Source of the DNA: Minisyncoccota bacterium
Lineage (GTDB): Bacteria; Patescibacteriota; Minisyncoccia; Phycocordibacterales; CAIJYI01
DNA: 64,000 nucleotides
Reading direction: 5' to 3'
NCBI GenBank assembly: GCA_023229825.1
Contig: JALNYN010000006.1
Span: forward strand, 255-64,254
The translations under genes and the position numbers were made by a program. This document shows, in pieces, positions 50,913 to 61,783 of this stretch. How positions within the stretch are numbered: the first letter of the stretch is position 1; each line of letters opens with the position of its first letter. The notes under the pieces were generated by a model, which was not told where the DNA came from, ran no database searches, and saw only the letters and a program-made list of their open reading frames with translations.

Positions 50913-51977
50913 TTAATACACGCGATATTTTCGGACAAACTCATTTATCTCGCTGTTATTGCACGGACGCAAGAGAGCAAAACGGATCGCCATTATGATG
51001 ACGTTGAACGGAATTTGGGTCGCAGGGGTGTTCGGAGCTGTTCGACTTCCGTTGAACAGCATACTGGCATTCTTAAAATAATACCACTCCGGAACATTTT
51101 CGAGCGTGCCCTCGCGAACGGTTTCTTCTTCGGAAAGAATGATCGCTTTTTTTGCCTGCTTCAGCTCTAACAGCCGGAGAAGTTTCGCAATGGCATCAGT
51201 GTTGATCTTAGCCTGGTTGTTCGTAAATATTTGCACCTGGCCTGTGGTCGGGCTTTTTTGAACGACCACATCCGCCTGCCCTCCTTCTTTTGAACGCAAA
51301 TATTTTGCGATGACCGGACAATCGGATTCTACTGAGTTAAAAGTAATGCCCGAAAAATTTTCAACGCAGGCGCTTTTCGCCGCTTTCGGGGCAACAACAT
51401 GGAATTCATGCTGTTCCGCCAGTTTCGCTTCGATCGCCGTGAAGTCCCACTCTATGGCAACCCAAGGGTCGTCCGGATGTTTTTCATGTATCAGCTTCAC
51501 CGTCGTATCCGGATCAACACTTCGAAGCATCGCGATATCTGCAGCCAACTTCCTGAATAATGCAGGGTTGGATTTGCGGAACGATTCCAACTCGGGAGCA
51601 TATAATTGAGTGAAAGAATTCAGGTCGGCGGCCAGCGTGTATTGGAGAATTTTTTTTAACTCGGGAAGTTTATCAACACCGAGCTTGCGAGCAACGAGCG
51701 TTGCTCCGCATTCTCCTTCCTTCCGCCCATGATTATTCGCGGTAGCATGTTCATCAAAGTCACCGCCGCCAACACCGAGAAGCAACTGCCCATTATTTTC
51801 ATACTCCTCTCGGGACATTGTAAATTGATCTTCGCGAAGAAACAACACATTTCTATCAATTATCGCTTGCCTGATCCCCGGATATTTTTCATCCCCATAA
51901 TCACGAAAGAGAAACATTTGTTTTATCTCATCATCGTGCGGTTGCGGGTGTGTGACCACCCCTTTCCAGATCTTCAT
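50913..51977 (-). CDS. hypothetical protein, possibly MYG1/UPF0160-like metal-dependent hydrolase
   Basis: 354 aa; THPQPHDDEI and LLLGVGGGDFDEHA loosely resemble MYG1 H-x-G-x-FH-x-DE and DVGG-x-YD...HH motifs; weak. Confidence 0.4.
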   Translation of the reverse strand: MKIWKGVVTHPQPHDDEIKQMFLFRDYGDEKYPGIRQAIIDRNVLFLREDQFTMSREEYENNGQLLLGVGGGDFDEHATANNHGRKEGECGATLVARKLGVDKLPELKKILQYTLAADLNSFTQLYAPELESFRKSNPALFRKLAADIAMLRSVDPDTTVKLIHEKHPDDPWVAIEWDFTAIEAKLAEQHEFHVVAPKAAKSACVENFSGITFNSVESDCPVIAKYLRSKEGGQADVVVQKSPTTGQVQIFTNNQAKINTDAIAKLLRLLELKQAKKAIILSEEETVREGTLENVPEWYYFKNASMLFNGSRTAPNTPATQIPFNVIIMAIRFALLRPCNNSEINEFVRKYRVY

Positions 51978-52197
51978 TTGAAAACCTCCTCAAAAAATCA
52001 AAAATCAGATAAAATTATCTACAACCATAATAGCATATTTACAATTTTTGTCAATTTCCGTTCGGACCAAAAAGTTCCGCAGTTCTGCGGAACTTTTTAT
52101 TTGGTGCTCGGGAGAGGAATCTTTCGCCCTACTGGCGCAGTACCCTTTTCCGATTTATTCGTTGGGGCCCCTACCCCAACTCATAAATGACGGAGAA

Positions 52198-52250
52198 AGG
52201 CTTCAAGTCCTCACGCGAGTGATTTAGGATCACTCGCTTCCTGGGCACCA
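52198..52250 (+). repeat. inverted copy of the tRNA-Leu T-arm/acceptor 3' half interrupted by a hairpin
   Basis: ggcttcaagtcctc-[acgcgagtgatttaggatcactcgct]-tcctgggcacca vs tRNA-Leu ...gaggttcaagtcctctcctgggcacca. Confidence 0.65.
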
Positions 52251-52294
52251 TTAAAAAAAGACCCGGCAAAGGGTCTTTTTTTAATGGTGCCCAG
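52240..52294. terminator. 55-bp perfect palindrome overlapping the tRNA-Leu CCA end
   Basis: cctgggcaccattaaaaaaagaccc-ggcaaa-gggtctttttttaatggtgcccagg. Confidence 0.7.
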
Positions 52295-52370
52295 GAGAGG
52301 ACTTGAACCTCCACGCCTTGCGGCATATCCACCTCAAGGATACTCGGCTACCAATTACGACACCTGGGCG
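52285..52370 (-). tRNA. tRNA-Leu(GAG), long variable arm, encoded CCA
   Basis: minus strand gcccagg-tg-...-tatcc-ttGAGgt-ggata-tgccgcaaggcgt-ggagg-ttcaagt-cctct-cctgggc-a-cca. Confidence 0.85.
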
Positions 52371-52376
52371 TTTTTG

Positions 52377-53051
52377 TCAAGTAGTTAATTTCTTTCCTAC
52401 AAGAGCCAAAGCTTTTTCCACTTTTTGCCGTTTTCGGCTCAAGCAAATAGCTTCATCTCCATTATACATACTTTTCAAAATTTTGGAAGAGTCCGCCTTG
52501 GCATACTTCAGCTGGTACACCGACGCAGTTTTACCATGGGTAATATGTCCTTGTATTTTTAAGCGTTTATATATTTCGTTCCTTAACCAATCGATATGTT
52601 TTTTACTCGCAGATACAAATATTGTATAAAACATGAAACTTGATTTCCAACGCGGATCATAATAGGAATGAAAGGAACCATCTCCATCAAACGAGCCACG
52701 TAAGAAATCAAAAAAATACTCCTCAGGAATTTGTATCTCTCCAATCGTTTTTGACTTGTTTGGAGTAAAACCAATACTCAACAGATATTCATAAAAAAGT
52801 ACATCGCAAAATTGGACGAGAAAATATTTCTTTTCGAGTGTAGCTCCGCTCGCCTTTTTCCCAAGTTTATATGTTATGTTAAGGGCTTTTCGAAAATTTT
52901 CCGCTTGTTCACGATCTTTTGAAGTAAATATGATGTGCCTGCCATCGCCAGATAAACATCCATCGCTCGCCAATAGTCCCATTGCGTACGCAAAATTCGT
53001 CGACCACTTGATCCTTACATTTCCCTTCGGCTTTGGTCCCCTATTCCCCAT
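52377..53051 (-). CDS. double-motif LAGLIDADG homing endonuclease, free-standing
   Basis: 224 aa; first motif FAYAMGLLASDGCLSGDGRHIIF, second motif FLRGSFDGDGSF; stop codon 6 bp from tRNA-Leu 5' end, 110 bp downstream of rplS. Confidence 0.85.
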   Translation of the reverse strand: MGNRGPKPKGNVRIKWSTNFAYAMGLLASDGCLSGDGRHIIFTSKDREQAENFRKALNITYKLGKKASGATLEKKYFLVQFCDVLFYEYLLSIGFTPNKSKTIGEIQIPEEYFFDFLRGSFDGDGSFHSYYDPRWKSSFMFYTIFVSASKKHIDWLRNEIYKRLKIQGHITHGKTASVYQLKYAKADSSKILKSMYNGDEAICLSRKRQKVEKALALVGKKLTT

Positions 53052-53160
53052 TTGCTTATTATATCAAAGACATTTCCCTTCCTCAAGTACATAGCGTATA
53101 CCAATTAATTTTTACAAAAACACCTCGCAAAAATTTTGCGAGGTGTTTTTTGAATATAAT

Positions 53161-53664
53161 TTATTCTTTTTCCTCCGCTTCGGCTTTTGCTTCTTCCACC
53201 TTTCCTTCTTCTTCGGCTTTGGCGTCGTCGGCGATCTCTCTTTCCTCTACATCCATGACATCTTCCTCTTCATCCGGTACGATCGCTCCGGCCATACGCT
53301 CGTTTCGCATTTTTCTGCGGACCTCGCGGGCGACTTTCTCGCGGATATAATAGAGTTTGGATCGGCGGGTTTTGGTGCGGCGGACGATCTCGATCTTGTC
53401 GAGAACGGGAGAAAAGAGCGGAAAAATTCTTTCAACACCGACTCCTCCGGTTACTTTTCGAACCGTGAAAGTGGCGCCCGGCTCCGTGCCGTGTTTTCGT
53501 GCCAGTACCAATCCTTCAAAAGCCTGAAGGCGGGTTCGGTCTTTTTTGTCTTTTCCTATTTCCTTGATCTTCACAAACACGCGAACGGTGTCGCCTGCGC
53601 GCATATCAAGTTTTTTCCTTTCGGATATCTTCACTGATGTGAAATTTTTTGCGATCTGTGCCAT
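53161..53664 (-). CDS. rplS: 50S ribosomal protein L19 (bL19) with acidic C-terminal extension
   Basis: 167 aa; [39 protein letters not shown]...[43 protein letters not shown]; E/A/K-rich tail. Confidence 0.9.
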
Positions 53665-53787
53665 GTTTTTAATATTTTTTACGGTGACACTAATGTAGCA
53701 TAAAGTTCGATTTTACGCAATAGTTTACGAGTCTGTAAGGTCTATAAAGTCTATAAAGTCACGACACAACGACGACAAGCAACGATT

Positions 53788-54552
53788 TTATTCTTTAAGA
53801 ATCTTTTCGGCATTTTTGAAATCTTGAGGCAGCGGCGCTTCGATATGCAGGACTTGATGGGAGGGAGTTACGACATCGATGGAAAACGAGTGAAGGGCGA
53901 GCCGTTTAAAACCGAGGATTTCCTTTCCTTTTGGCGCATAAAGCGTATCGTGAACGACCGGATGTCCGACGGCTTTCATGTGAACTCGAATTTGATGGGT
54001 ACGCCCCGTTTCCGGATACGCTTCGATGTAGGTCGCCTCATTCCCTCTCGCGAGCGTCTTGTAGGTGGTGACCGCTTCCCTTTTGTCTCCGCGAGCGCCG
54101 TACTCAGCCGACCATTTTCGAAAATCATTGCGGCTTCGTCCGATCGGCTTATCGATCACCTGAAGGGCCTCCTTGGCTTCGCCGAAGCCTTTGACGAAAA
54201 CGGGCTTGATGATCCCGTAGACGAAAGCGCGATAGGTTTTTTTTACTCGCCTTTCCTGAAACTGTTTTTTTAAATATTCGAAAGCTTCTGGCGTCTTGGC
54301 GATAAGAATGGCTCCCGAAGTATCCCGATCAAGACGATGGACGATCCCGGGACGCCAAATTATCTCGCCGTTCGTCGCACGCCATGGTTCACCCACTTTT
54401 TTTATATCCGGATATTTTTCCATCAGCCAGTCGGAGAGCGAGGGTTCTTTTGTTCTTCCATCGGAATGCACAATGAGCCCCGCCGGCTTATAAAGCGCGA
54501 GCAGGGTTTCATCCTCATAAAGGATCTGAATGCCGGGGATCTCTGATCTCAT
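53788..54552 (-). CDS. RluA-family pseudouridine synthase
   Basis: 254 aa; HRLDRDTSGAILIAKT catalytic Asp motif, KTYRAFVYG. Confidence 0.9.
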   Translation of the reverse strand: MRSEIPGIQILYEDETLLALYKPAGLIVHSDGRTKEPSLSDWLMEKYPDIKKVGEPWRATNGEIIWRPGIVHRLDRDTSGAILIAKTPEAFEYLKKQFQERRVKKTYRAFVYGIIKPVFVKGFGEAKEALQVIDKPIGRSRNDFRKWSAEYGARGDKREAVTTYKTLARGNEATYIEAYPETGRTHQIRVHMKAVGHPVVHDTLYAPKGKEILGFKRLALHSFSIDVVTPSHQVLHIEAPLPQDFKNAEKILKE

Positions 54553-61565: not shown

Positions 61566-61612
61566 CGCGTGTCCCCTCGGTAGGATATCTCGCCTTACTG
61601 GCGCAGTACCCC
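61566..61612. repeat. direct partial copy of tRNA-Arg 3' end (GCGTGTCCCCTCGGTAGGA) followed by motif CTTACTGGCGCAGTACCCC (also at 52128-52148 near tRNA-Leu)
   Basis: compare 61776-61797 gcgtgtccccccggtaggaatcg (tRNA-Arg 3' end) and 52128 ccctactggcgcagtaccc. Confidence 0.65.
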
Positions 61613-61783
61613 AATTGGATATTTTGTTTCTCCGCCAGCTGGCGAATCACAAAATCTCTCAATCGGGCTTCGATTCCTAACGCGAATGAGGAGCATCTCA
61701 CTCGCTCCGAGGGGTTTTGTGAGTATGTTTAATTTGTTCGTCGTCCCCGATACTGATACTTTTCCCAGATACTTCGTGCGTGT

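Follow-up and report, generated by a model that had tools for sequence, protein, structure and literature searches.

A window of 64,000 nt from the genome of a Minisyncoccota bacterium (GCA_023229825.1, contig JALNYN010000006.1, positions 255 to 64,254, forward strand) carries, between the ribosomal protein gene rplS and a complete tRNA-Leu(GAG) gene, an open reading frame (ORF) with the motifs and predicted fold of a LAGLIDADG homing endonuclease. We consider it fairly probable that this ORF belongs to a free-standing homing cassette specialised on tRNA-Leu genes, which would bring along an immune copy of the tRNA, hold a target-like fragment at its promoter and probably still be active. On this reading of the sequence, the putative cassette is a previously undescribed form of intronless homing. 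Homing endonucleases are usually thought to persist inside self-splicing introns, inteins or phage genomes, and our literature searches returned no account of a tRNA-Leu-linked LAGLIDADG cassette, the work found on LAGLIDADG genes of the Candidate Phyla Radiation (CPR) dealing with rRNA insertions only. It lies between two host genes (rplS and tRNA-Leu), with a promoter of its own and no splicing element, as is the case for free-standing endonuclease genes. The original prediction, made from the letters of the window, had named it a free-standing gene with two LAGLIDADG motifs, and this description stands, since the catalytic residues are intact and neither an intron nor an intein encloses the gene. 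What had escaped that prediction is a conserved 26-nt 5′ fragment of tRNA-Leu directly upstream of the ORF (53081-53106).

Conserved linkage of a LAGLIDADG endonuclease to tRNA-Leu(GAG)

Relatives of the window protein were retrieved as 2865 protein clusters at E≤0.001. Besides the window's own protein at 100%, the best 120 of these clusters consist of proteins of about 220 aa with 60-83% identity, and all those among the 120 that carry a taxon name belong to Patescibacteria or Paceibacteria. When each GTDB species was represented by one genome, at least 421 species-level Paceibacteria genomes proved to encode relatives, at 57-72% identity. To compare neighbourhoods we used the window and its 80 best related loci (81 in all, cited here by L number), which were retrieved by protein alone. 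A tRNA-Leu gene starts between −44 and +31 nt from the ORF stop codon in 75 of the 81 loci, with the anticodon GAG in 73 cases, AAG in one and an untypable anticodon in one. The remaining six are contigs that terminate within 80 nt past the stop, so the linkage to tRNA-Leu holds wherever it can be tested. About 65 of 80 loci share the gene order pseudouridine synthase, rplS, ORF, tRNA-Leu(GAG); loci with other genes upstream still have the tRNA after the ORF. The alternative that the gene had invaded an ordinary intergenic spacer, offered by the original prediction, is thus not borne out: the order rplS, LAGLIDADG gene, tRNA-Leu(GAG) recurs in about 65 of 80 species-level genomes, the tRNA-Leu junction is present at all testable loci, and the ORF lies inside a partly duplicated tRNA-Leu gene. 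The family also accounts for a common “hypothetical protein” beside tRNA-Leu in Paceibacteria genomes. As a separate observation, the contigs at L004, L015, L046, L066 and L070 stop within 80 nt past the endonuclease stop, at the tRNA, which suggests assembly breaks from repeats or from strain-level variation at the locus and hints at mixtures of filled and empty sites; such breaks may likewise go back to the endonuclease family.

The ORF matches Pfam LAGLIDADG_3 (PF14528) with E=1.3e-6, above the curated cut-off, and contains both motifs as had been proposed (AMGLLASDGCLSGDG and FLRGSFDGDGSF). The two motifs, GLLASDG with D30 and GSFDGDG with D124, retain their Asp residues in all 29 family members aligned, where 56 columns are invariant, the catalytic Asp among them (GLxxxDG, DGDG); a decayed pseudogene with disrupted acidic residues is therefore not what we find. 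A basic N-terminal tail (consensus MGxRGPKPKGKVKIKWS, also MGxRGPKPKGxVxIKWS) is mostly conserved in the same alignment. An AlphaFold2 model (mean predicted local distance difference test score 89.5, predicted template modelling score 0.87) consists of two alpha-beta-beta-alpha-beta-beta-alpha halves, the tandem arrangement that makes up the DNA-binding saddle of such enzymes, and has D30 and D124 at the C-termini of helices 18-30 and 110-123. The best match in the Protein Data Bank is I-Tsp061I (2dch), with a template modelling score of 0.68-0.73, a Foldseek E of 1.7e-11 and a phmmer E of 0.004; Foldseek gives probability 1.0 for I-Tsp061I, I-AniI, I-SceI and I-DmoI, and the non-catalytic WhiA and bI3 maturase appear as lower-ranked structural matches. 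PHROGs gave a match to a generic phage “endonuclease” family, and no NCBIfam model matches the endonuclease family. By its motifs and modelled fold the ORF product is a monomeric double-LAGLIDADG homing endonuclease, for which cleavage is predicted.

Purifying selection on the endonuclease is strong. The ratio of nonsynonymous to synonymous substitution rates (dN/dS) is 0.02-0.18 between close pairs, and the ORF is 216-227 aa long in most of the 81 loci. Both observations bear on the idea of an inert hitch-hiker, that is, an inactive relic retained since its deletion would harm the promoter or the essential tRNA downstream. Such a relic would fit the 7-nt spacer before the tRNA, which leaves the tRNA no room for its own promoter and thus constrains deletions, and also L083, which has kept exactly the last ~110 nt of the ORF before the tRNA; however, the low dN/dS, the uniform ORF length and the 56 invariant columns with the catalytic Asp among them speak against it, and we regard it as very improbable. 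From its sequence the protein looks like a working endonuclease.

The promoter-side tRNA fragment and the divergence of linked tRNAs

Upstream of the ORF, 63-64 of the 81 loci contain a fragment with the consensus aaTTGGTA[G/T]ACGCTAnnnnCTTGAG, the window version being AATTGGTATACGCTATGTACTTGAGG (53106..53081). It spans the D-loop, the 3′ strand of the D-stem, the 5′ strand of the anticodon stem and the anticodon GAG, and in alignments it is identical to nt 14-37 of tRNA-Leu(GAG) alleles from endonuclease-free genomes but for a single extra T behind the D-stem. Information content reaches 1.5-2 bits per position inside the fragment and is about 0.3 bit in the adjoining non-coding bases; as these adjoining bases are unconserved, the fragment itself must be under selection. 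A position weight matrix (PWM) of the fragment was run over 890 kb, both strands of the 81 loci, and found 64 matches directly upstream of the ORF and two others, both endonuclease-linked, with zero matches in real tRNAs. At L057 the entire 5′ half of the tRNA is retained (nt 1-36, GCGCGGGTGGCGAAATTGGTAGACGCTACTACCTTGAG). The fragment is probably a relic of the target site with a role as promoter or operator DNA.

An independent view was obtained from metagenome contigs, which were scanned motif-first, with the upstream fragment as the query and no reference to the protein. The scan gave 80 loci in total. Fifty hold a GAG fragment, each then followed by a GAG-type ORF and, wherever the sequence suffices, by tRNA-Leu(GAG); three hold a CAG fragment, each followed by a CAG-type ORF adjoining tRNA-Leu(CAG); and seven are too short for judgement. 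The 20 motif matches without an endonuclease gene were considered as naive targets and turned out to be chance matches in unrelated coding DNA, and no real tRNA bearing the fragment motif was met in the scan. Fragment anticodon, protein subfamily and tRNA therefore vary together.

Three other accounts of the fragment were tried and set aside. As a mere sigma-70 promoter, it would not explain that its distance to the −10 box varies, that the −35 candidate would be TAGACG or TTGAGG according to locus, that its anticodon tracks the downstream tRNA (GAG versus CAG), nor that L057 retains the full 5′ half. Homogenisation with the downstream tRNA by gene conversion disagrees with the differences in D-stem and anticodon stem between the two within a locus. 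Renewal from the tRNA of each new host is unlikely, given that the extra T is identical in all fragments.

The end of the homology between fragment and tRNA, at nt 36-39, falls in the anticodon loop. This is the classic position of tRNA introns, and bacterial tRNA introns are found there. It gives some colour to an intron-borne origin, in which the anticodon loop of tRNA-Leu(GAG) formerly housed a group I intron with the ORF, the ribozyme was then lost, and a duplicate tRNA stepped in. An origin of this kind would also agree with the nearest solved structure being an archaeal intron-encoded enzyme and with the other known CPR LAGLIDADG genes, which reside in rRNA insertions and there in many cases in group I introns (PMC11270868). 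Rfam was searched at gathering threshold over the whole window and at E≤10 over 51700-53900. These scans gave only tRNA and chance-level matches, and neither Intron_gpI nor any other ribozyme was matched in 51700-53900, so that the absence of an obvious group I intron noted in the original prediction is upheld; its suggestion that the gene might be the remnant of an intron-associated element does not hold for the present state of the locus. The non-coding flanks of the ORF, 29 nt from fragment to ATG and 7 nt from stop to tRNA, leave no room for a ribozyme core, and thus an intron remnant could be meant only as a remote origin. At none of the loci does a remnant of a 3′ exon separate the ORF from the complete tRNA, and the ORF shows a promoter of its own as well as strong purifying selection. 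We take an intron-borne origin to be quite unlikely, at best remote, and in no case the present nature of the locus.

A promoter scan found TTGAGG-17-TATAAT with a TG before the −10 box, followed by 6 nt and the ATG. The TTGAGG (53081-53086) is part of the fragment and could serve as the −35 box. Of 52 loci, 51 have a −10-like hexamer no more than 20 nt from the start codon; a gap of exactly 6 nt is seen at 28 loci and one of 5-8 nt at 37, and the TG extension at 22. A Shine-Dalgarno-like motif occurs in three of these loci and is missing in 49. With the −10 box only about 6 nt before the ATG, a leaderless mRNA is predicted, and the pattern suggests that the endonuclease mRNA is leaderless in the window (53049-53066) and at these related loci. 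Because the 7-nt spacer has no space for a separate tRNA promoter, a common transcript is predicted as well: ORF and tRNA are probably co-transcribed and the tRNA released by RNase P. We further observed that the ORF extends 15-44 nt into the tRNA-Leu before its stop in 15 of the 75 loci (L007, L023, L025, L037, L039, L040, L043, L045, L049, L051, L053, L058, L065, L076 and L079); where ORF and tRNA overlap in this way, RNase P processing would leave mRNAs without a stop codon.

The tRNAs linked to the endonuclease have departed from the canonical sequence in just the region that the fragment preserves. The endonuclease-free tRNA-Leu(GAG) alleles (L086, L127, L172 and L216) all contain the core ACGCACTACCTTGAGGTGGTAG, which is found in 4 of 141 distinct linked alleles (hypergeometric p about 4e-6 from the counts), and these four free alleles have three different acceptor stems. 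Over an anchored 38 nt covering the D and anticodon arms, identity is 96% for the free alleles and 64.5% for the linked ones. The canonical D-arm GGTA[GT]ACGC occurs among GAG alleles in 9 of 141 linked versus 3 of 4 unlinked cases (p=0.0017) and, with GAG and CAG pooled, in 10 of 147 linked versus 11 of 17 unlinked cases (Fisher p=7e-8), in tests that ignore phylogenetic relatedness. The window tRNA itself has the D-arm GGTAGCCGAG with compensating changes in the D-stem, and the canonical GGTAGACGC is kept by its fragment; the canonical endonuclease-free allele is represented by GGCGAAATTGGTAGACGCACTACCTTGAGGTGGTAG and by GGCGAAATTGGTAGACGCACTACCTTGAGGTGGTAGC, from L172 or L216. This divergence is what an active endonuclease recognising the D/anticodon-arm region would produce and what a host regulator would not. 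The cassette thus appears to have pushed its linked tRNA to change sequence and so escape cutting.

The same arrangement is repeated at a second tRNA-Leu gene. Clustering of 240 proteins separated a GAG group of 161 from a CAG group of 78. At L013 (1-800, minus strand) a second copy, about 50% identical to the window protein, has a stop codon that overlaps tRNA-Leu(CAG) and is preceded by the fragment ...GGTATACGCTATATGCTTCAG with the anticodon CAG. Similar arrangements are present in L091 (2440-3260) and L215 (1930-2740), and the CAG subfamily also in L109, L157 and L172. Some genomes hold both cassettes; the CAG-type copy L091 and the GAG-type copy L090 lie on one Kaiserbacteria contig, and which of the two sites, GAG and CAG, is filled or empty differs from genome to genome. 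The usual tRNA cluster is Arg/Leu(CAG)/Val; against the flanking tRNA-Arg and tRNA-Val the cassette has the opposite orientation in L013, L091 and L215, and the CAG-type ORF of L172 converges with the tRNA. The two subfamilies, GAG and CAG, may discriminate between targets that differ at one anticodon base, which would be of interest for enzyme engineers.

Proposed homing cycle, inheritance and comparison with known systems

In the cycle that we propose, the enzyme would recognise the canonical tRNA-Leu(GAG) sequence TTGGTAGACGC-A-CTACC-TTGAGGTGGTAG, covering the D-arm and the anticodon arm, and cut alleles that lack the cassette. LAGLIDADG enzymes make site-specific double-strand cuts in targets of about 18-22 bp, and we propose this one from the conserved fragment, the uniformity of the endonuclease-free alleles and the divergence of the linked ones. 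Repair of the double-strand break would then copy the endonuclease gene together with the linked tRNA allele, that is, intronless homing with co-conversion of a resistant flank. As the linked allele has diverged in the D and anticodon arms, it would be immune, and no intron or intein would be needed because the cassette brings a whole tRNA gene. A single transcript of ORF and tRNA would start from the promoter on the fragment side, with a leaderless mRNA, from which RNase P would free the tRNA. The fragment overlaps the −35 region and spacer, where it would most likely act as promoter DNA and as an operator that is bound and left uncut, since it has the extra T and no right half-site. The sister subfamily would do likewise at tRNA-Leu(CAG).

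Sites without the full gene are found among close relatives. At L172 rplS is followed by 11 nt and tRNA-Leu(GAG) with no ORF; at L216 by a terminator, about 55 nt and the tRNA; and at L086 about 750 nt of unrelated sequence take the place of the ORF. L083, whose L19 is 77% identical, has only the last ~110 nt of the ORF left, directly before tRNA-Leu(GAG), and L081 and L088, with comparable L19 identity, carry the full gene. From these empty and truncated sites it follows that the gene is dispensable and patchy among relatives with 66-87% identical L19. The gene is thus present in some relatives and absent at the corresponding site in others, as a mobile element would be, and phylogenetic discordance is moderate. 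On a side note, the stretch behind rplS in this part of L083 (3600-5130) is occupied by two unrelated ORFs and a HigB/YafQ-like toxin gene, so that toxin-antitoxin-like genes lie upstream of the truncated copy.

Inheritance was compared for the endonuclease, L19 and RluD in 51 genomes. Mean pairwise identity is 0.60 for the endonuclease, 0.50 for L19 and 0.45 for RluD. Across L19 identities of 0.3 to 0.75, that of the endonuclease remains level at 0.59-0.61, and only beyond an L19 identity of 0.75 does it climb to about 0.72. L19 identity correlates with that of the endonuclease at r=0.37 and with that of RluD at r=0.72, both significant by the Mantel test. Single pairs are discordant in either direction: L039 and L076 share 77% in the endonuclease versus 44% in L19, and L009 and L043 share 70% versus 94%. 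The data agree with vertical inheritance over short times, combined either with occasional transfer or with saturation caused by strong constraint.

Several of these points weigh against an active, selfish cassette. The endonuclease is more conserved than L19 or RluD, which is unusual for a selfish endonuclease; the host may instead impose a strong constraint under which identity has become saturated. Gene order is for the most part kept, and much of the inheritance must therefore be vertical. The extra T is common to all fragments, the CAG ones too, and points to one ancestral event and not to repeated fresh insertions. The inverted cassettes in the CAG cases are not predicted by simple homologous homing. 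Carriage by phages was considered and rejected, as a scan of viral contigs found no relatives, and with this no vector for horizontal spread was identified there. The escape signature compares linked alleles with n=4 endonuclease-free GAG alleles in tests that, as said, disregard relatedness. Finally, it is from patterns in the sequence that we deduce the target, the immunity, the role as operator, the joint transcription and the leaderless start.

These considerations give some room to domestication, by which an ancient, fixed and no longer mobile insertion would serve the host, either as a DNA-binding regulator that controls the tRNA-Leu operon via the fragment or as a maturase-like RNA-binding factor for tRNA-Leu or for ORF-less rRNA introns. 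The very high, plateau-like conservation (mean identity above L19 and RluD), the dN/dS well under 1, the synteny kept in about 65 of 80 loci, the conserved upstream DNA motif at an operator-like position and the single origin implied by the extra T would all be at home in such a scenario, and domesticated LAGLIDADG folds do exist, with WhiA and bI3 maturase among the structural matches of our protein. Yet both catalytic Asp are invariant, unlike in WhiA-type proteins, and the gene is not uniformly present, being dispensable at the empty L086, L172 and L216 and the truncated L083, in relatives whose L19 is 66-77% identical. A host regulator would moreover leave unexplained why the canonical D and anticodon arms are lost in linked tRNAs only, and how a second tRNA-Leu gene came to be occupied, again with a fragment that matches it. 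We therefore consider domestication unlikely, and give it what weight it has because the conservation is unusually high and the extra T points to a single origin. A homing cassette, the reading that we prefer, can be extended to a new homing architecture in which the endonuclease carries an immune tRNA copy, is expressed as a leaderless mRNA-tRNA fusion, uses a crippled target as promoter or operator, and has, by its continuing activity, driven an arms race in which tRNA-Leu(GAG) and tRNA-Leu(CAG) became diverse in their D and anticodon arms throughout a Patescibacteria class; this complete picture we offer tentatively, as a possibility with less than even chances.

Among known systems, the proposed cassette comes nearest to intronless homing as known for the Seg and Mob enzymes of T-even phages, of which T4 SegB sits in a tRNA gene cluster (PMC2988022). 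In both cases a gene with its own promoter and no intron or intein lies between conserved genes, the presumed target is in an adjacent conserved gene, a flanking allele, in our case presumably resistant, is co-inherited, and the site is filled or empty among relatives. However, the T-even enzymes are of the GIY-YIG or HNH type and belong to phages, whereas a LAGLIDADG protein encoded on Paceibacteria chromosomes is concerned here; the presumed target is the body of a tRNA gene, and a conserved pseudo-tRNA fragment on one side and a complete tRNA on the other enclose the cassette, which has persisted across hundreds of species.

The putative operator recalls the autorepression of I-TevI, which binds a homing-site-like operator over its own promoter that shares 15 of 20 nt with the homing site (PMC2988022). 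The tRNA-Leu cassette likewise has a near-target sequence over the −35 region and spacer of the endonuclease promoter, which would lack what cleavage needs. Enzyme family and host differ, and the operator-like DNA in our case would be a physical remnant of the disrupted target gene. It is a possible second case of endonuclease self-regulation through a relic of its own target.

Within the CPR, LAGLIDADG endonucleases have been described from insertions in rRNA genes, often group I introns, in a study that does not mention tRNA (Tsurumaki et al., 2024; PMC11270868). Radiation, superfamily and the presumed choice of highly conserved RNA genes as targets are shared with the tRNA-Leu family, but the latter is free-standing and tied to tRNA-Leu. 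The archaeal I-Tsp061I and I-DmoI are the best matches in sequence and structure, of similar size and with two motifs per chain; identity to them is just 15-18%, they reside in archaeal rRNA introns, and the Paceibacteria proteins have an additional basic N-terminal tail. Integrative elements that target tRNA genes and bring a replacement piece of the tRNA also insert into a tRNA gene and leave a partial duplicate on one side and an intact gene on the other. They duplicate the 3′ end, whereas the duplicated piece in our locus is 5′ (D-loop to anticodon), no integrase is present, and the driver would be a homing endonuclease. Taken at face value, the family is a large and strongly conserved group of endonucleases free on bacterial chromosomes that appears to spare its host via an extra copy of the target tRNA, and it would give a long record of endonuclease-target co-evolution in an essential tRNA.

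Locus layout and the downstream structured element

The features of the locus are collected in Table 1. Both flanking genes, rplS and tRNA-Leu(GAG), are complete, as they had appeared to be in the original prediction. The ORF indeed ends just before the tRNA, at a distance of 7 bases (last base of the stop 52377, tRNA 5′ end 52369) and not the 6 first counted. Hairpins resembling the one at 53116..53150 precede the fragment in most related loci.

Table 1. Features around the endonuclease gene, with positions in the window
Feature	Position	Strand	Basis or remark
Pseudouridine synthase gene	54552..53788	minus	ORF list and Pfam
rplS (ribosomal protein L19, 167 aa)	53161..53664	minus	Pfam Ribosomal_L19, E=1.8e-30; usual upstream neighbour of the cassette
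Terminator-like hairpin after rplS, then T-run	53116..53150	minus	Perfect 17-nt inverted repeat
Pseudo-tRNA-Leu(GAG) 5′ fragment, AATTGGTATACGCTATGTACTTGAGG	53081..53106	minus	Alignment of upstream regions
Extended −10 element, TGaTATAAT	53058..53066	minus	Promoter scan
Double-LAGLIDADG endonuclease ORF, 224 aa	52377..53051	minus	ORF list, Pfam LAGLIDADG_3
Spacer from ORF stop to tRNA, 7 nt		minus	Read from sequence
Complete tRNA-Leu(GAG)	52285..52369	minus	ARAGORN; Rfam tRNA, 45.2 bits
58-bp perfect palindrome (tRNA 3′ end, terminator hairpin, inverted copy of tRNA 3′ end)	52239..52296		Inverted-repeat search

A palindrome and an inverted partial tRNA copy had been noted at the 3′ side of the tRNA. 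The copy is there (TTCAAGTCCTC/GAGGACTTGAA), and so is the palindrome, although it measures 58 bp, as two perfect 26-nt arms with a 6-nt loop, and not 55 bp. Both are part of an element of about 155 nt (52252..52099, minus strand) directly downstream of tRNA-Leu(GAG). At its 5′ end it carries, in reverse complement, the acceptor 3′ strand and T-stem of the tRNA, with a conserved hairpin (GCGAGTGA...TCACTCGC) interposed; GGGTACTGCGCCAGTARGGCGA forms the core, and the 3′ end of the tRNA is repeated at the 3′ end of the element. A second copy, tailored to tRNA-Arg, is located after tRNA-Arg(TCT) at about 61781..61570 (minus strand). The two copies match in architecture and fold much better than shuffled controls do (z=−6.0 and −5.6); between them, the mimic of the T-stem shows covariation (GAGGA/UCCUC versus UAGGA/UCCUA). 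No Rfam family matches the element in the scan of 51700-53900 at E≤10.

The element occurs in the endonuclease-positive L009 and in L086 and L172, which are endonuclease-free, and is missing from the close relatives L001, L081 and L088, all endonuclease-positive; its distribution is thus independent of the endonuclease gene. The palindrome is the border of this separate downstream element and lies outside the endonuclease cassette. The view that palindrome and inverted tRNA piece are scars of past recombination at this gene loses its footing with these observations, as the element is also seen in the endonuclease-free L086 and L172 and after tRNA-Arg in the window, and is absent from some relatives that bear the gene. 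The element may be a new small RNA linked to tRNAs, or else a small mobile element by which tRNA 3′ ends become duplicated.

Next downstream of the tRNA-Leu locus lies an ORF of 354 aa (50913-51977, minus strand) that has no Pfam match; a counterpart of 357 aa occupies the equivalent position in L001 and L081.

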